DNA of 64,000 bases, from positions 640,001-704,000 of the forward strand of contig CAVUAK010000001.1 in NCBI GenBank assembly GCA_963739455.1, in the 5' to 3' direction. This DNA comes from an uncultured Gemmatimonadales bacterium (GTDB lineage: Bacteria; Gemmatimonadota; Gemmatimonadetes; Gemmatimonadales; GWC2-71-9). How positions within the stretch are numbered: position 1 is the stretch's first letter; each line of letters starts with the position of its first letter. This document shows positions 43,425 to 51,693 of this stretch, one piece after another. The notes under the pieces are model-generated. The model was given only the letters and a program-made list of their open reading frames with translations. It was not told where the DNA came from and did not search any database. Position numbers and translations under genes: made by a program.

Positions 43425-44558
43425 ATGGCGTCATCCCCGCCTTCCCCGCCCTCCCCGCCTTCCGATTGGCTGCACCACCTCGCTGACGAGGCTGATGCGG
43501 CATTCCTCTATCGCGAGCTGGCCCAGGCCGAAAGTGACCCCGGCCGATCGAAGATCTACGGCCAGCTCGCCGAGGTCGAGGACCGGCATGTCGAAGCGTG
43601 GCAGAAGCTGCTCACCGAGCAGGGGCACGTGGTGACGGTACCAGCACCGTCGCGGGACGCCCGGCTCCGCGCGTGGGTAGCGCGCCGTATCGGGCCGGGC
43701 GTGGTGCTGCCACTGCTGCTCGAGGAAGAGGGCCGCGAGGTCAAGAGTTACCTCTCGATGTATCGCGATGAGCCCCAGGGCGCGGCCGGTCCGACGGCCC
43801 TCAAGCTCGCGCGCGAGTCGAAGGAACACGCCGAGCGTCTCGCCTCGATGGGCGGCGGTGCCGCGGAACCGTGGCACAAGACCGGGGCGGGTGGTTTCCT
43901 CCGGAACGTCGTTTACGGCTTCAATGACGGACTCACCGCCAATTTCGGCCTCGTGGCCGGCATGATCGGCGCACAGGGCGCCAACCTTGGCGGTCACGCG
44001 GTGCTGGTGGCTGGCGTCGCAGGCATGGTGGCCGACGCATTGTCGATGGCGTCGTCGGGCTATCTCGCCGCGAAGAGCGAGCGCGAGGTGTTCGAGCACG
44101 AAATCGCGATGGAGCGGGACGAGATCAAGCTCATGCCCGAGCTCGAGGGCGAAGAGCTGAGCCTCATCTACCAGGCGAAGGGCATTCCCGCAGCACAGGC
44201 CGACGCACTTGCCGCCGAGGTGATGAAGGACCCCGAGCGCGCGCTCGCCGAAAAGGTGCGCGAGGAACTGGGCATCGGTGAGGCCACGAGCACGCCGATG
44301 CGTGAGGCATGGATTACCGGGACGGCCACGGCACTCGGCGCGCTTATCCCGGTAGCGCCCTTCTTCTTCGGCCGCGGACCGCTCGTCATCTGGACGTCGT
44401 TCGCGCTCGCAATGCTGAGCCACTTTGCCGTCGGCGCGGCGCGCAGTTTCTTCACCGGCCGCGGCGTGATCCGAAGTGGCATGGACATGTTCCTGGTGGG
44501 GCTTGGCGTGGCCGGCATCGGCTATGTAGTGGGCGACTGGATCGTACGACTCCTCTAG
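43425..44558 (+). CDS. VIT1/CCC1 transporter with N-terminal rubrerythrin/ferritin-like domain
   Basis: E...Y, E..H motifs; LRNVVYGFNDGL, ALSMASSGYL. Confidence 0.88.
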   Translation: MASSPPSPPSPPSDWLHHLADEADAAFLYRELAQAESDPGRSKIYGQLAEVEDRHVEAWQKLLTEQGHVVTVPAPSRDARLRAWVARRIGPGVVLPLLLEEEGREVKSYLSMYRDEPQGAAGPTALKLARESKEHAERLASMGGGAAEPWHKTGAGGFLRNVVYGFNDGLTANFGLVAGMIGAQGANLGGHAVLVAGVAGMVADALSMASSGYLAAKSEREVFEHEIAMERDEIKLMPELEGEELSLIYQAKGIPAAQADALAAEVMKDPERALAEKVREELGIGEATSTPMREAWITGTATALGALIPVAPFFFGRGPLVIWTSFALAMLSHFAVGAARSFFTGRGVIRSGMDMFLVGLGVAGIGYVVGDWIVRLL

Positions 44559-44563
44559 ATCGC

Positions 44564-46495
44564 GTGGACTCACCCGGCGCGATCACCCTTCCGCCGCGGT
44601 TCCGGCTCGATCGCGAGATCGGGCGCGGCGGCATGGCAGTCGTTTATCGCGCGCACGACCACCACCTCGACCGTTTCGTCGCCATCAAGGTGCTGTCCGC
44701 CGACTGGTCGCGCGGGGTCGGGAGTGATCGCTTCCAGCGCGAGATCGGGTTGATGGCCCGACTGGTTCATCCCGGCATCGTGGCACTGTTCGATTCCGGC
44801 GAAGTGGATGGACGGCTCTTCTATGTCATGCCGTTCGTCGCAGGCGAGACCCTCCGCGATCGCCTGACCCGCACCGGCCGCATGCCTGTCGAGGAGGCCG
44901 CAGCGCTCGGTGCAGACATCGCCGAGGCACTCGCCTATGCACACGGCCTTGGCATCGTGCACCGGGACGTCAAGCCGGAGAACATCTTCTCGGTCAGCGG
45001 GCGCGCCGTGCTGGCTGACTTCGGCATCGCCCGCGTCAACGACCAGGCTGATCGAAGTGCCCTGACAACGGCGGGAGTCGTCGTGGGGACGCTGTCGTAC
45101 ATGAGCCCGGAACAGGCATCGGCCGATGCGGGCCTGGACGGTCGCTCGGACCTCTATAGCCTGGGCTGTGTGCTCTATGAGTTGCTGACGGGCCGGGCGC
45201 CATTCGTTGCGACCACGCCCCTCGCCATCATGGCGAAGCACATGACGGAGACACCGCGTCCCCCCGGCACGCAGGGCGTGGAAGTGCCTGCCGCAATGGA
45301 TGCGATCATCATGCAACTGCTCGCCAAGGACGCTGGTGAGCGACCGAGACATGCCGGTGACGTGGCGCTGGCCCTGCGCGCGATGGCACAGCGACCCACC
45401 GCCGTCTCACCTCCGACCCCGGCGCCCGAACACTCTCCTGTACCGCGAAGCGATAGCGGGGCCAGCGCGGCGAGCGAGGTGAACCGCCTCATTGCCGAGG
45501 GGAAGCGGGCGTTCCGGTTGTATAGCCCCGGAGAGGGGGCCAAGGCGCGGACACGTCTCGATGAGGCGAAGACCTACCTGGACCGCGCGCTCGCACTGGA
45601 TCCCCGGAACGCACACGGTCTCTCCATGATGGGCAACTGGCACTTCGTGGCCGGCATCAGCGGAATCATGGATCGCGAGGAGGCCTTTGCACGGGGACGC
45701 GAGCTCATCATGGCGGCGCTCGCCGCCGATGACCAGGTCGCCGAAGTGCAGTGTTCCATGGCCAAGCTTGCGCTCTACTATGACGACGATTTCCACGCCG
45801 CCGCGCGCCACGTGGAGCGCGCCATCCAGCTGGACCCATTCGACCGCGAGGCACTGCGGCTGCAGAGCATCGTGTTCAAGATCCTGGGTCGCACCGATGA
45901 CGCGGTGCGCGCCGCCCAGGCCGCGACCGAGCGAGCACCCCGGGAGCCGGTGACGTGGAATTCACTGGGCGATGCGCTGCTGGCGGCCGGCCGGAATGCC
46001 GAGGCGGTCGATGCCCTGAAGCGGGCCATCAGCCTGCAGTCCGGGTACGGCCCCGCCCTCGAGCGCCTCGAGATCGCCCGCGGGCGACTCGGGGAGCATG
46101 AACTTGCGCTCGAGATCCGGAGTTCACGAATTCGCCTTTCGGGCGATCGCGAGCGTGCTGACCTGCTGGACCGCGAGGGGCTGGAGGCGGGCGCGGCAAC
46201 CGCGCTGCAACGCGACCTGCGCCGCGAGCTGAGCGCCCTGCTCTCGGAGGCGGCGCGAACGGACGCATTCGCAGAGTATTTCACCACCCGGACGACCGCC
46301 GACCGAATCGTCATGGTCTGTATCGAACTGGGTGATTGGCAGACCGCGATGGACTGGGTGGAACAGTCCTACCAGCGACGACCGGGACGGCTCCGGCGGC
46401 TGCTCACCGAGCTTCCCTTCGATCGCCGTGCGCTCGCCGTCGACCCACGGTATGCTCGCCTGCTTCGCGTGGCCGGCCTGGAAGAGCTGATCTGA
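44564..46495 (+). CDS. Ser/Thr protein kinase with TPR repeats
   Basis: GRGGMA, VAIK, HRDVKPEN, DFG, YMSPEQ, DLYSLG; C-terminal TPRs. Confidence 0.9.
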   Translation: MDSPGAITLPPRFRLDREIGRGGMAVVYRAHDHHLDRFVAIKVLSADWSRGVGSDRFQREIGLMARLVHPGIVALFDSGEVDGRLFYVMPFVAGETLRDRLTRTGRMPVEEAAALGADIAEALAYAHGLGIVHRDVKPENIFSVSGRAVLADFGIARVNDQADRSALTTAGVVVGTLSYMSPEQASADAGLDGRSDLYSLGCVLYELLTGRAPFVATTPLAIMAKHMTETPRPPGTQGVEVPAAMDAIIMQLLAKDAGERPRHAGDVALALRAMAQRPTAVSPPTPAPEHSPVPRSDSGASAASEVNRLIAEGKRAFRLYSPGEGAKARTRLDEAKTYLDRALALDPRNAHGLSMMGNWHFVAGISGIMDREEAFARGRELIMAALAADDQVAEVQCSMAKLALYYDDDFHAAARHVERAIQLDPFDREALRLQSIVFKILGRTDDAVRAAQAATERAPREPVTWNSLGDALLAAGRNAEAVDALKRAISLQSGYGPALERLEIARGRLGEHELALEIRSSRIRLSGDRERADLLDREGLEAGAATALQRDLRRELSALLSEAARTDAFAEYFTTRTTADRIVMVCIELGDWQTAMDWVEQSYQRRPGRLRRLLTELPFDRRALAVDPRYARLLRVAGLEELI

Positions 46496-46502
46496 CCCGC
46501 GC

Positions 46503-46531
46503 TTGACACCACCGCTGGTTTCGCGTATCTC
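46503..46531 (+). promoter_or_regulatory. Sigma70-type promoter of the sulfur operon
   Basis: TTGACA-N17-TATCTC. Confidence 0.6.
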
Positions 46532-46548
46532 TGGATACGACAATTGAT

Positions 46549-46600
46549 TCGTGGTCATTTGCCGCGTATTGCAGCCACGTTAAACAAATGCTAAAAAGCG
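46549..46600 (+). ncRNA. SAM-II (SAM_alpha-like) riboswitch aptamer
   Basis: P1 CGTGGT/GCCACG, ATTT loop, GTATTGCA, TTAAACAA, GCTAAAAA-GCG tail; matches the SAM-II pseudoknot pattern and precedes sulfur amino acid genes. Confidence 0.82.
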
Positions 46601-46603
46601 AGA

Positions 46604-46636
46604 CGTCCGCGCCTCGTTGCCGCGGGCGCTTTTTTT
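46604..46636 (+). terminator. Riboswitch expression-platform terminator
   Basis: CGTCCGCG/CGCGGGCG stem followed by C and T7. Confidence 0.7.
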
Positions 46637-46669
46637 CGTCGCCAGTTCCTGGGCGACAGGGATGCCTGC

Positions 46670-47933
46670 ATGACCGCAGCCGCTGTTTCTCCGAAGGTGC
46701 GTGCGCTTCCGCTCCGGTGCCGCAATTGTGGCGTGGAGACCGAGCCGGCGCCCAAGGCCATCTGCGAAGAGTGCCTGGGACCGCTCGAGCCACTCTATGA
46801 TCCTGCGCGGCACTTGCCGACGCGTGCCGAGATTGGCGCGCGGGCAGCGTCGCTCTGGCGCTACCACGAGTGGCTGCCGCTCGAGGGCACCCCGCCCTAC
46901 TCCCTCGATACCGGGTTCACCCCGCTGGTAGAAGTGCCCCGCCTGGCACCACTGCTCGGCGTGGCGCGGGTGTGGGTGAAGAACGACGCGGTGTCACACC
47001 CGAGCCTGTCGTTCAAGGATCGCGTCGTTGCCGCCGCGATCAATGCGGCCGCGGCGTTCGGCATCGATACCGTCGGCTGCGCCTCCACCGGCAACCTGGC
47101 CAATGCCGTCGCCGCGCAGGCTGCCCGCGCCGGGCTGCCTGCCTGGATCTTCATCCCCGACAACCTCGAGCTGGGCAAGGTCGTGGGTACCTCCGTGTAC
47201 GCACCGAACCTCGTGCGCATCCGGGGCACCTATGACGACGTGAACCGGCTCTGTGCCCAGGTGGCCGATCGCTATGGCTGGGGCATCGTCAACGTGAACC
47301 TGCGCTCGTACTACGGCGAGGGATCGAAGACGGTCGCGTTCGAGATCGCGGAACAGCTCGGCTGGCGCCTGCCGACCGCGGTCGTGGCGCCGATGGCAGG
47401 CGGGTCGCTGGTGTCGAAGCTGGGGAAGGGATTCCGCGAGTTCATCTCGCGCGGGACTGGTGAACGGCGAATCGCCGCGGCTCTACGGGGCGCAGGCCAC
47501 GGGGTGCGCGCCGATCGTGCGGCTGGTCGAGCGCGGCGATGGCCAGCTCATTCCCGAGATCCCGGACACGATTGCGCGCTCGATCGCCATCGGCAACCCG
47601 GCGGATGGCGCGTACGCCGCCGAGTCGATCCGGAAGTCAGGTGGCTGGGCGGCGAGCGTGAGCGATGCCGAACTGGTGAAGGGGATCAAGCTGCTCGCCG
47701 AGACGTCGGGGATCTTCACCGAGACGGCTGGTGGGGTGACACTCGCAAGTGCGCTCGAACTGGCGCGCACCGGTCACTTCCGCGCGGACGACGAGGTAGT
47801 GCTCTGCATTACGGGGAACGGCCTCAAGACGGTCGAGGCCCTGAGCGGTTCATTGGATGAGGCACCGGTGCTGGCACCCCGCCTCCGTGACGTCGCGGAT
47901 CTCGTGGCGCGCACGTCGCAGAATTCACGCTGA
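46670..47933 (+). CDS. Threonine synthase-like fold-type II PLP enzyme; frameshift near 47456
   Basis: CxxC...CxxC N-terminus, G.TPL, SFKDR (PLP Lys), ASTGN, EGSKT, ITGNGLK. Confidence 0.85.
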
Positions 47934-47946
47934 GGAGGGATTCATC

Positions 47947-48222
47947 ATGTCCGTAACGCTTTCCCTGCCCGCTGTCCTGACCCGCCTCACCGATGGTGCC
48001 CGTACGCTCGAGGCGACCGGGGCCACGGTGGGCGATGTGGTACAGGATGTGGCCGGCCGGTTTCCGCAGCTCGCGCCGCGCCTGCGCGACGAGCAGGGCA
48101 ACCCATACTCCTTCGTGACGTTCTACCTGAACGACGAGGACATTCGCTTCACCGGTGGCTTTGCCACCGTCGTGCGGGACGGCGATGAGCTGATCATCGT
48201 GCCCGCCATTGCAGGAGGCTGA
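47947..48222 (+). CDS. MoaD/ThiS/CysO family ubiquitin-like sulfur carrier
   Basis: [23 protein letters not shown]-terminal diglycine; GAGGAGG RBS. Confidence 0.92.
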
Positions 48223-48226
48223 CTCC

Positions 48227-49397
48227 ATGACCACATCAATTGCCGCGGAGCCGCTGCCCGAGCTGGGCAACGACGAGATCCTCCGCTACAGCCGCCACCT
48301 GATCCTGCCCGAGTTCGGGCTCGAGGCCCAGCGCAAGCTCAAGGCATCGAGCGTGCTCGTCGTCGGGAGCCGGCGGGCTCGGCTCGCCGCTGGGCCTCTA
48401 CCTGGCTGCCGCCGGTGTCGGCCGGCTTGGCATCGTGGACTTCGACGTCGTTGATGCCACCAACCTGCAGCGGCAGATCATTCACGGTACCGCTGACGTC
48501 GGTCGCCCGAAGCTCGACTCGGCGCGCGACCGCATCCAGGGGCTTAACCCGCACGTGGATGTGCAGACCTACGAGGGGCGCTTCACGTCGGCCAACGCGC
48601 TCGAGATTGCGCGCGACTACGACCTCGTCATCGACGGCACGGACAACTTCCCGACGCGCTACCTGGTGAACGACGCGTGCGTGCTGCTGGGCAAGCCCAA
48701 CGTGTATGGCAGCATTTTCCGCTTTGAGGGGCAGGCCTCCGTGCTCGCGACGGACAGCGGGCCTTGCTATCGCTGCCTGTTCCGTGAGCCGCCACCCCCG
48801 GGCATGGTGCCGAGCTGCGCTGAAGGCGGCGTGCTCGGCGTGCTGCCAGGGCTCATTGGCGTGATCCAGGCCACGGAGGCGATCAAGCTGCTCACCGGCA
48901 TCGGCGAGCCGCTCATCGGCCGGCTGCTCCTGGTGGACGCACTGCGCATGCAGTTCCGCACGCTGAAGTTGCACCGTGACCCACTGTGCCCCGCGTGCGG
49001 CACGCGCGAGATCCAGTCGCTGATCGACTACGAGCAGTTCTGCGGGTTGAACGACGTGGACAGCAGCGTGGATGCCACCATTCCGGAGCTGACACCGAAG
49101 CAGCTCGCCGCGCGCATCGAGCGGGGCGATGACTTCGACCTGATCGACGTCCGCGAGCCGCAGGAGTGGGCGATCGCCCAGCTTCCCGGCGCGCGGCTCA
49201 TTCCGCTGGGCACACTCCCCGCGGCGCTGGGTTCGCTGGACAGCGCTCGCGAGGTGGTGATCTACTGCAAGGGTGGTGTGCGGAGCCTTCGCGCGGCGAC
49301 GCAACTGCGCGCTGCCGGGTTCCGCAAGGTGTCGAACCTCACTGGCGGCATCCTGCGCTGGAGCAGCGATGTCGACCCCAGCGTGCCGACCTACTGA
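48227..49397 (+). CDS. moeB: MoeB/MoeZ adenylyltransferase-rhodanese fusion; frameshift near 48368
   Basis: RYSRH, GAGGLG (split by the shift), [22 protein letters not shown], rhodanese CKGGVRS. Confidence 0.9.
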
Positions 49398-49489
49398 TGA
49401 CGTACCTGCCGAGCATGCCCATGCCCTGTTGTTGTGACCGTTGCATGCGACGGTCGGGGCTGGGGCATGTCCGGTGGTCACCGCCATAG
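49397..49489 (+). CDS. Cys-rich leader peptide [30 protein letters not shown]
   Basis: TGATG-coupled to moeB; TGT TGT TGT GAC CGT TGC; followed by antiterminator and terminator. Confidence 0.78.
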   Translation: MTYLPSMPMPCCCDRCMRRSGLGHVRWSPP

Positions 49490-49519
49490 CGGCGCAACGA
49501 CCAGTGCATGCATCACCCC

Positions 49520-49551
49520 GACCCACCGACACCCGGTGGGTCTCTTTTTTT
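49520..49551 (+). terminator. Attenuator terminator upstream of the sulfurtransferase
   Basis: GACCCACCG-ACACC-CGGTGGGTC then TC and T7. Confidence 0.85.
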
Positions 49552-49586
49552 CACCAAGGCCCGATTCACACTGAGGAGAATGAACG

Positions 49587-50486
49587 ATGACTGCCACTCG
49601 CCCCGCGCCAACCACCGCCACGGCCCCCATCGAGGAGCGTGGATATGCCCGCCCCGACGTGCTCGTGTCTACCACCTGGCTGGCTGACAACCTCGATGAC
49701 CCGAAGCTCCGCCTGCTGGAGAGCGATGAGGACGTGCTGCTCTATGACCTGGGGCACATTCGCGGCGCACAGAAGATCGACTGGCACGACGACCTGAATG
49801 ACCCGGTGGTTCGTGACTACATCAACGACGCGGGCTTCGAGCGCCTGCTTCGGCGGCTGGGCATCGACCAGACCACAACGGTGGTGCTCTACGGCGACCG
49901 GAACAACTGGTGGGCCACATATGCGTTCTGGGTGTTCCGGCTCTTTGGTTTTCCCGAGTCGCAGCTGCGCCTGCTCGACGGTGGGCGCGCCGCGTGGGAG
50001 GCAGAGGGCCGGCCCCTCGTCACCTCGCTCAAGTCCTTCACCGCAAGCCGGTATCGCGGTCCCAGGCGCGACGACAGCGGCATTCGCGCATTCCGGGAGG
50101 AAGTACTGGAGCATTCAGCGCGGGGCCGTCCACTGATCGACGTACGGTCGCCCGACGAGTTCACCGGCCGCAAGCTGCACCTGGTGGAGTATCCGCAGGA
50201 GGGAGTGCTGCGCGGCGGCCATGTGCCGGGGGCGAGCAACGTGCCGTGGGCGCGCGCGGCCAGCACCAACGGGACCTTCAAGGACGCTGAGACACTGCGT
50301 GACATCTACGAGGGCGAGGCCGGCCTCAGGAAGGGCGACAGTGTCATCACCTACTGCCGCATTGGCGAGCGGTCGAGCCATACCTGGTTCGTGCTGACGT
50401 ACTTGCTGGGCTATTCGAAGGTGCGGAACTACGACGGCAGCTGGACAGAGTGGGGCAACGCGGTAGGACTGCCGATCGAGAAGTAG
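49587..50486 (+). CDS. Tandem-domain rhodanese/thiosulfate sulfurtransferase (CysA2/SseA-like)
   Basis: [40 protein letters not shown]. Confidence 0.93.
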
Positions 50487-50549: not shown

Positions 50550-51026
50550 CTACTTGTTGAAGACCGCCGAGAACTTCTGGGCCGCGTCCGGACCGGACTT
50601 CGCGCTCACGATGTCGGTCATCGCGGGCACCATCTTCTGGAACTGGTCCTGCGAAACCCCGGCGTTCTTCAGCGAGCCCGACAGGCTCGTCAGCCCCACC
50701 ATCTCGCTGGGCATGCCCAGCTTGGAGCCTTGCCTGATGAGGTTGTCGCTTCCGGGAAAGGCGCTTGCCACCTGCCTGAAATCGGCTGGTTGCATTTGGC
50801 TCTGCGCATAGAAGAGTATGCCGCCCATGGCGTTGGCAGTCTGCAGCTGGGTCAGTTCCGGCACGGACTTCTGCACCTGGCTGACCACCTCGTTGGAGGC
50901 GCCGAGCGGATTCGGCAGGGGCTCCGTGCCGGCCGATGACTGGGGGTGGCTGCACGCTCCCACCACGGCCACGCACGCGAGTGTCGAACCGAAGACCCTG
51001 ACCGACTTCATTGCAAGCGATACCAT
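50550..51026 (-). CDS. DUF2780-like lipoprotein, copy 1
   Basis: Lipobox VGAC; MGGILFYAQ..MQPADF....AFPGSD. Confidence 0.6.
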   Translation of the reverse strand: MVSLAMKSVRVFGSTLACVAVVGACSHPQSSAGTEPLPNPLGASNEVVSQVQKSVPELTQLQTANAMGGILFYAQSQMQPADFRQVASAFPGSDNLIRQGSKLGMPSEMVGLTSLSGSLKNAGVSQDQFQKMVPAMTDIVSAKSGPDAAQKFSAVFNK

Positions 51027-51166
51027 ACGAACCTCCGTTGATGGCGTAAGCAGGCTCAGTGAAGCCGTCGGGCTACACTGGCACCTGTACCTTCGCATCA
51101 TACGGTCGGCAGGAAGGTCCCACTAGGGAGGGTCGAACGGCCTATGCCTGGTCGGGCGCGCCTCGC

Positions 51167-51201: not shown

Positions 51202-51693
51202 CTAGCTCCTGAACACCGCCGCGAACTTGTCGGCGACCTCAGCTCCCTCCTTCTCCTTCACGACCTCTGTCATGGCGGGAACGAGCTGGTTGAACTGATC
51301 CCGGGAAATCCCGATGTTCTTGAGCGAGCCCGACAAGCTCGTGAGCCCATACATCTCGCTGGGCATGCCGAGCCTGGTGCCTTGATTGATCATCGCATCA
51401 CTTCCCGGAAACGAGTTCTTCACCTTCCTGAAATCGGCCGGCTGCATCGAACGCTGTGCATAGTACAGGATGCCGCCCATGCCCTGTGCTATCTGCGTCG
51501 GGGTCAGCCCGGGCACCGCACCCTGAACCTCGTTGACCACCGGCGCGGAGGAATGGAGCGGGTACTGCAGCGCAGCAGGCGCGCCGGGCGCCTGCGTGGC
51601 GCCATTCCCACTACAGGCAGCCGCGAGCGCGAGCACCGCGCATGCGAGGGTGGAGCCGACAAACCTCCCTGGTCGAGCCGCAATCATTGCCAT
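51202..51693 (-). CDS. DUF2780-like lipoprotein, copy 2
   Basis: Lipobox AAAC; clearly homologous to copy 1. Confidence 0.6.
   Translation of the reverse strand: MAMIAARPGRFVGSTLACAVLALAAACSGNGATQAPGAPAALQYPLHSSAPVVNEVQGAVPGLTPTQIAQGMGGILYYAQRSMQPADFRKVKNSFPGSDAMINQGTRLGMPSEMYGLTSLSGSLKNIGISRDQFNQLVPAMTEVVKEKEGAEVADKFAAVFRS

Follow-up and report, generated by a model that had tools for sequence, protein, structure and literature searches.

The closest described counterpart of the locus reported here is the MetM/MetO/MoeZ/Mec route of Streptomyces albulus, which leads from O-phosphohomoserine to homocysteine (Hasebe et al. 2024, doi 10.1128/aem.01247-24; described by way of 10.1101/2024.10.14.618325, PMC12172450 and 10.64898/2026.09.15.751699), and in which metM has an upstream riboswitch for S-adenosylmethionine (SAM) (PMC12172450). 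Here, we describe an operon in a 64,000-nucleotide stretch of DNA from an uncultured Gemmatimonadales bacterium (the window), which covers positions 640001-704000 of contig C1 in the source assembly G000 (3.6-Mb, 4 contigs, 83.7% complete, 67% GC). A SAM-II riboswitch leads genes for a threonine synthase-like (ThrC-like) enzyme, a sulfur carrier and a MoeZ-type protein, after which a short leader open reading frame (ORF) with a run of cysteine codons, followed by a terminator, precedes a rhodanese gene. With moderate confidence, our models suggest that this operon, which likely encodes a MetM/MetO/MoeZ homocysteine route, contains an internal cysteine-sensing attenuator that would admit transcription to the rhodanese gene only when both SAM and charged Cys-tRNA are low.

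As in S. albulus, the ThrC homologue is followed by a sulfur carrier, has a SAM riboswitch upstream and is joined by a MoeZ activator. Unlike the S. albulus route as described, the window operon has a SAM-II riboswitch with a terminator, carries moeZ inside the operon, encodes a carrier that already ends in GG, has no Mec that we could find, places an extra rhodanese behind a cysteine leader, and coexists with metY-metX. A SAM-II riboswitch with a terminator is known ahead of metZ in Sinorhizobium meliloti (PMC9373788), where the same Rfam family and a predicted termination platform likewise precede a homocysteine-forming gene; the window differs in phylum, in the enzyme controlled, and in having a second, ribosome-based gate further on. 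Separate rhodaneses that feed an E1-like enzyme thiocarboxylating a GG carrier are found in the Tum1/TtuD to Uba4/TtuC to Urm1/TtuB sulfur relays (PMC8584467). The window has the same kinds of parts, but its product would probably be homocysteine, and feeding of MoeZ by the rhodanese is suggested by gene position only.

For the leader, the nearest parallels are the mycobacterial polycysteine small ORFs Ms5788A/Rv0815A, which are leaderless and precede an operon with the rhodanese gene cysA2 (Canestrari et al., 10.1101/834739). There, as modelled for the window, a short ORF with Cys codons in a row controls a thiosulfate sulfurtransferase via ribosome stalling. However, cysteine attenuation in mycobacteria is a leaderless translational control (10.1101/834739; PMC13236596), with the small ORF first in the transcript and a hidden Shine-Dalgarno sequence, whereas the window leader is operon-internal, coupled to an upstream stop codon and followed by an intrinsic terminator. 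Actinobacterial Cys leaders have been reported without terminators (Seliverstov 2005, PMC1262725). The folding models of the window rather resemble classical trp/his attenuators (10.1101/834739), with a control-codon run, a 1:2 hairpin, a 2:3 antiterminator and a 3:4 intrinsic terminator; unlike those, the control amino acid is cysteine, and the element lies 2.8 kb into an operon, behind a riboswitch, gating the last gene only. In the literature that we searched, which left most subscription papers outside, we found neither a Cys leader that has an intrinsic terminator nor one located operon-internally behind a riboswitch.

A SAM-II-led operon with a predicted internal attenuator

Every part named in a first-pass annotation of this DNA was found at its place, all on the plus strand (Table 1). 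The SAM-II aptamer (SAM_alpha) is the sole Rfam match in the 64 kb window. A consensus promoter scanner called no promoter at the TTGACA-17-TATCTC candidate in front of it, although the identical hexamer pair stands upstream of the aptamer in all six close sequences. SAM-II precedes the metM-like gene in 15 of the 17 genomes carrying that gene; in the two others, the contig ends inside the gene (G025; G-numbers denote the genomes compared) or both riboswitch and carrier are missing (G035). Most leaders have a CGC:GCG pseudoknot, with a compensatory GGC:GCC in G033 and G041 (2/17). All ten leaders tested show complementarity between the aptamer loop and the terminator region (-7 to -16 kcal/mol, computed without a null model), and in equilibrium folding most leaders keep the terminator in both states. 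Bound SAM would let the terminator form, so that the enzyme, carrier and MoeZ genes would be transcribed when SAM is low. A second SAM-II with a terminator, just before the window (G000:C1:632546-634581), leads metF and metH. Other SAM-II-led versions of the operon, at loci L040 (G045) and L036 (G055), have the gene order carrier-moeZ-enzyme and contain, ahead of the carrier, genes for a class I/II aminotransferase and a panB-family protein.

The second gate is suggested by the leader, which begins where moeZ stops and has 2.8 kb of operon in front of it, instead of standing in the operon's 5' leader. We found it in four of the eight operon-bearing genomes of the genus (G000, G001, G003 and G009) and in all three metagenome contigs (L110, L111 and L112; L-numbers denote loci) from a 20-nucleotide pattern scan of genome contigs, in which 16 of 19 loci lacked a match to any operon protein and were dropped. 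It always separates moeZ, which it follows directly, from the same rhodanese gene; its start codon overlaps the moeZ stop in G000, G001, L110 and L112, and otherwise sits 1-4 nucleotides downstream. A blastn search of the leader against 301 genomes of the order returned real matches in G000 and G003 only, ten others being short and at chance level, and a genome-wide scan for CC-leader/terminator pairs gave ten candidates, one of them this leader; four of the other nine were inspected and are chance frames.

The leader frame is conserved in all seven sequences, with TAG or TGA as the stop in the same place. Its core, MPMPCCCDR, is invariant at the DNA level, including three TGT codons, TGT being the rarer Cys codon (89 of the 519 sampled from G001 ORFs). 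When the bases of the 190-nucleotide spacer were shuffled, three Cys codons in a row arose in 0.6% of the copies. Frame, Cys run and terminator are all kept in six of the seven sequences, and in those six the terminator hairpin is retained with variable loops. While the ORF had been described as Cys-rich, and does hold four Cys codons, it has four Met codons as well. Since we found no conserved internal -35 in the operon, and no TANNNT in the 60 nucleotides before the moeZ end in any of six sequences, the riboswitch promoter probably drives the rhodanese gene as well.

Folding produced a four-segment pattern. In free RNA, the Cys codons pair with GGTCGGGG; with a ribosome placed over the Cys codons in constrained folding, GGTCGGGG instead pairs with CCCCGACC, which overlaps the 5' arm of the terminator. 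The base of the terminator is formed at 0.98-1.0 in naked RNA (five sequences). When all RNA upstream was masked, a ribosome at Cys codons 2-3 lowered the terminator probability to 0.2-0.4 in six of six sequences, whereas a ribosome at the Met codons left it at 0.8-1.0 in all six. Our model is that ribosomes finishing moeZ would re-initiate on the leader and, when Cys-tRNA is short, stall at or just past Cys codons 2-3, upon which GGTCGGGG would capture the terminator 5' arm and allow read-through into the rhodanese gene.

The rhodanese has PDB 1UAR (E 5.7e-114) and SseA/CysA-type sulfurtransferases (SseA 3HZU; 3AAX) as its closest solved relatives. A gene survey and a tree show that it is an extra copy, additional to a housekeeping paralogue that all 12 genomes of the genus carry. 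It may supply persulfide sulfur to MoeZ at low cysteine, from thiosulfate, mercaptopyruvate or a desulfurase relay.

Leaders of comparable design occur elsewhere. Upstream of metY-metX in G000 (L121, C1 about 2070790-2070990, minus strand) lies a promoter-proximal, apparently leaderless Cys/Met ORF (MKRICMCHQMCTCRS...) with a strong terminator, and a Cys/Met ORF with a terminator precedes metY in all 12 readable loci of the 18 fetched. In each of these 12 leaders, a purine-rich segment could pair with the arm of that leader's terminator, two of them beating shuffles at p<0.01, and the one in G013 lies downstream of a SAM-II match. By analogy, the metY-metX leader supports the operon-internal attenuator. 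Among 27 other rhodanese loci, Cys-containing short upstream ORFs were seen in three (L084 in G045, L106 in G033 and L107 in G026), the one in G045 reading MPCMMGCC and having a clear terminator; no Cys-leader pattern was found at eight loci before cysK, CBS-like or cystathionine-lyase-like genes.

A more specific version of the attenuator model can be put forward tentatively, at a little under an even chance: a Cys-specific, terminator-type ribosome attenuator arrived with the rhodanese gene by insertion at the stop codon of moeZ, and translational coupling loads it with ribosomes, so that one mRNA carries a nested rule over 3 kb; this element would belong to a set of Cys/Met transcription attenuators spread across the Gemmatimonadota, which the literature that we searched does not describe.

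A likely MetM-type route to homocysteine

Genomic context indicates that the likely product of the enzyme operon is homocysteine, formed via the MetM/MetO/MoeZ thiocarboxylate route. The first-pass annotation had pointed to such a route in Streptomyces, which is indeed published, and had concluded that the window enzyme is a homocysteine maker and not a threonine synthase. That conclusion is favoured by the context, by separate thrABC genes and by the enzyme's clade, although a Microcystis MetM homologue makes threonine in vitro. Since the enzyme gene is broken in the window sequence (see below), the intact G001 orthologue (420 amino acids, 90% identical) stood in for it in whole-protein work.

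G000 has its own thrA-thrB-thrC operon on contig 3, and in five of five genus genomes thrB adjoins a thrC that is 33% identical to the window enzyme. In a survey of 61 genomes, a metM-like gene, counted at ≥59% identity to the window type, occurred in 17, all of which carry another ThrC-like gene. Under the same riboswitch stand hom (homoserine dehydrogenase) in G041 and a homoserine-kinase-family gene in G045, and the control of metF-metH by the second SAM-II of G000 also favours a methionine role. The only strong actinomycete match available to us, a Nonomuraea enzyme that is 47.8% identical, is encoded in the layout SAM-I, thrC-like, carrier-GG, as has been reported for S. albulus metM (PMC12172450), and its carrier is 36% identical to that of the window. 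In a FastTree tree of 35 proteins, with broken or short rows left out and the Nonomuraea gene serving as proxy for S. albulus MetM, the window enzyme and the Nonomuraea gene form one clade apart from the thrB-linked ThrC (support 0.91).

The solved-structure search for MetM returned threonine synthases only, the ESM Atlas held only clusters named 'threonine synthase', NCBIfam had no MetM model, and no cysK/M model was among the enzyme's best NCBIfam matches. MetM is often misannotated as threonine synthase (GapMind 2026, 10.1101/2024.10.14.618325). Structure prediction of the enzyme with the carrier gave a complex score of 0.40 against 0.00 for the best control, with run-to-run contact agreement of at least 86% and a partner predicted local distance difference test score (pLDDT) of at least 83; in our benchmark, scores of 0.60 or below comprised five of 78 solved complexes and all four passing mismatches (of 180). 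The predicted complex therefore backs enzyme-carrier binding weakly, and likeness to CysM-CysO may contribute to the score.

Sulfite reductase was not found in any of five genus genomes, so a sulfide-independent route to homocysteine would be useful. No complementary pattern emerged between metM and metX across genomes: strong MetX occurs in one of nine metM genomes outside the genus, with about two expected among 49. In our model, MoeZ would adenylate and thiocarboxylate the GG end of the carrier, as its homology and context suggest, and the ThrC-like enzyme would use the thiocarboxylate sulfur to convert O-phosphohomoserine, supplied by the separate thrA/thrB, to homocysteine for MetH.

The carrier scored below the cut-off of the SAMP1 and moaD_arch models, while the G001 orthologue of MoeZ passes PRK08762 MoeB. 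MoeZ probably also serves a molybdopterin MoaD encoded elsewhere, because no other ThiF-family gene was found in G000, because moaD-moaE-moaA is located away from the operon, and because G006 keeps moeZ where the riboswitch, enzyme and carrier are replaced by an unrelated gene (L248, G006:C7:2838320-2842024; VIT1...moeZ...DUF2780-like gene). One MoeZR serves more than one carrier in mycobacteria (PMC3227635), an arrangement that is probable for the window MoeZ too.

The published parts of the MetM route are MetO, Mec, MoeZ and MetM, with Mec assigned to MetO maturation (GapMind 2026, 10.1101/2024.10.14.618325). The cluster had been noted to lack a Mec peptidase, and PF14464 indeed scored above cut-off in none of five genus genomes. 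This absence is probably not a gap, since the published role of Mec is MetO maturation and the window carrier is encoded with its GG end. At L232 (G014:C296:36000-43500), an Rrf2 regulator, a rhodanese, a PALP enzyme, Mec/JAB and carrier-MoeZ form a CysO/CysM-type cluster, in a genome that also has a metM-like operon.

Alternative readings of the leader, the enzyme and the frameshifts

Several observations count against the attenuator. Its cassette is limited to one subclade and to half of the operon-bearing genus genomes, with G003 lacking the terminator and most of the rhodanese gene. The leader has no Shine-Dalgarno sequence, and its translation would therefore depend on coupling to moeZ. 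RNAalifold pair counts gave covariation in none of the 51 consensus pairs of the attenuator, the antiterminator duplex outperformed shuffled sequences at p<0.05 in one of five operon leaders (p 0.02-0.32), and equilibrium switching was partial. When only a 30-nucleotide footprint was masked, the deepest opening fell one codon past the Cys run in G000, G009 and L111, while G001 was noisy and opened upstream too. As for the supposed sulfur donor, thiosulfate has been called probably unphysiological for MoeZR (PMC3227635). Lack of covariation, weak shuffle tests, the missing Shine-Dalgarno sequence, the restriction to one subclade and the housekeeping rhodanese in all 12 genus genomes would also fit a simpler account, by which metM-metO-moeZ ends constitutively at the hairpin at 49520, leak-through alone expresses a rhodanese gene that was inserted late, and the Cys ORF either goes untranslated or is incidental. 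We consider this account unlikely, because three rare TGT codons are invariant in seven sequences, TAG and TGA exchange in place as the stop, the modelled opening with upstream RNA fully masked spans only 3-6 codons at and near the Cys run, and the same design precedes metY in this genome. Alternatively, the leader might respond to methionine in addition to cysteine, in the manner of the Met/Cys leaders ahead of metY, which mix both residues; every copy has 4-5 Met codons against a 1.9% background, and MPMP before CCC is invariant. Such dual sensing appears improbable, given that modelled stalling at the Met codons leaves the terminator formed in all six sequences and that opening at the last upstream Met starts only with an 18-nucleotide footprint, in G001. 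For the AND gate of low SAM and low Cys-tRNA proposed in the first-pass annotation, conservation, the lack of a conserved internal promoter and the folding models thus stand on one side, and the covariation count on the other.

The homocysteine assignment likewise has evidence against it. The G001 orthologue passes the TIGR00260 thrC cut-off (237.6 against 167.1; the thrB-linked gene scores 273.1), and a Microcystis homologue, 51.6% identical to MetM and without a riboswitch, acts in vitro as a threonine synthase/deaminase (PMC12172450). In G035 (L215, G035:C2:500-7500), a 59% homologue adjoins a homoserine-kinase-family gene, with neither SAM-II nor a carrier within 7 kb, and this enzyme may act in threonine synthesis, a role either regained or retained. 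Also, G000 has metY-metX, so the thiocarboxylate route is not needed to fill a gap. The enzyme could accordingly be a second threonine synthase or act on another acceptor (O-phosphoserine to cysteine, CysM-like), with the carrier and MoeZ serving molybdopterin or cysteine synthesis; the sole ThiF-family gene, the distant moaD-moaE-moaA and the lone moeZ of G006 would agree with this too. We nevertheless find such a role rather improbable, as the genome has a canonical thrABC operon, SAM-II control is present in 15 of 17 genomes, the clade is shared with an actinomycete SAM-I locus, the enzyme falls outside the CysK/M family, and the CysO/CysM-type clusters of relatives carry Mec and a different carrier.

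In the window sequence, one extra base each splits the thrC-like gene (near 47450) and moeZ (near 48368), which the first-pass annotation had missed. Both bases are absent from six of six aligned relatives; in short-read contigs of related strains, the first is absent in three of four runs and the second in two of four. Frame changes affect 26 of 85 orthologous ORFs of G000 (99 G001 ORFs tried), or 0.36 frame-breaking indels per kb of coding sequence, and for this reason the two frameshifts are probably assembly errors; broken genes in this assembly should not be taken for pseudogenes. It is very improbable, in the light of these rates and of the relatives, that the source strain truly has both frameshifts and with them an operon in decay, even though two genes of the operon are broken and metY-metX could stand in for the thiocarboxylate route.

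Implications

The enzymes on their own are ordinary, their MetM/MetO/MoeZ type being already known, and their novelty had initially been overrated; the attenuator is the less ordinary part. We thus see a known enzyme route in a new lineage, with an attenuator that is well motivated but predicted. The locus extends the thiocarboxylate route to homocysteine, described in 2024, to the Gemmatimonadales, where its enzyme is annotated as threonine synthase, and where genomes in which we found no sulfite reductase combine the route with MetX/MetY under a different sensor. If our reading is correct, the internal leader is a Cys-sensing transcription attenuator with an intrinsic terminator, whereas characterised cysteine attenuators act on translation, and the operon is a natural riboswitch-plus-ribosome AND gate spread along its length. 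In the more specific version of the model, the nested rule would be that low SAM yields the homocysteine enzymes, and that low SAM together with translated moeZ and low Cys-tRNA adds a backup sulfur donor.

Operon features and neighbouring genes

Table 1 Features of the operon, with positions in the window.
Feature	Position	Strand	Basis
sigma70-like promoter candidate, TTGACA-17-TATCTC	46503..46531	+	sequence
SAM-II riboswitch aptamer (SAM_alpha, RF00521)	46541..46613	+	40.8 bits vs gathering score 36
SAM-II terminator	46604..46636	+	hairpin 46604-46628, then T7 46630-46636
ThrC-like pyridoxal phosphate (PLP) enzyme, probable MetM homocysteine synthase	46670..47933	+	PALP; +1 base near 47450
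MoaD/ThiS-family sulfur carrier (MetO-like), ends AIAGG	47947..48222	+	PF02597
MoeZ-type E1-like adenylyltransferase fused to rhodanese domain	48227..49397	+	ThiF+Rhodanese; +1 base near 48368
Leader ORF, 30 codons	49397..49489	+	ATG overlaps moeZ stop (TGATG); three TGT Cys codons 49427-49435
Predicted antiterminator segment GGTCGGGG	49452..49459	+	constrained folding; invariant in 6/6
CCCCGACC (49516-49523) overlapping terminator hairpin 49520-49542, then U tract	49516..49551	+	terminator scan
Two-domain rhodanese / thiosulfate sulfurtransferase, CRIGERS loop	49587..50486	+	Pfam

Upstream of the operon, a Ser/Thr kinase-TPR gene (44309-46495) lies between VIT1 and the promoter candidate; it is absent from this place in G001, G003 and G004 and present in G009. 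Downstream, two tandem paralogous lipoprotein-like genes on the minus strand (50550-51101 and 51202-51693) converge on the rhodanese gene, and their G001 counterpart matches DUF2780.

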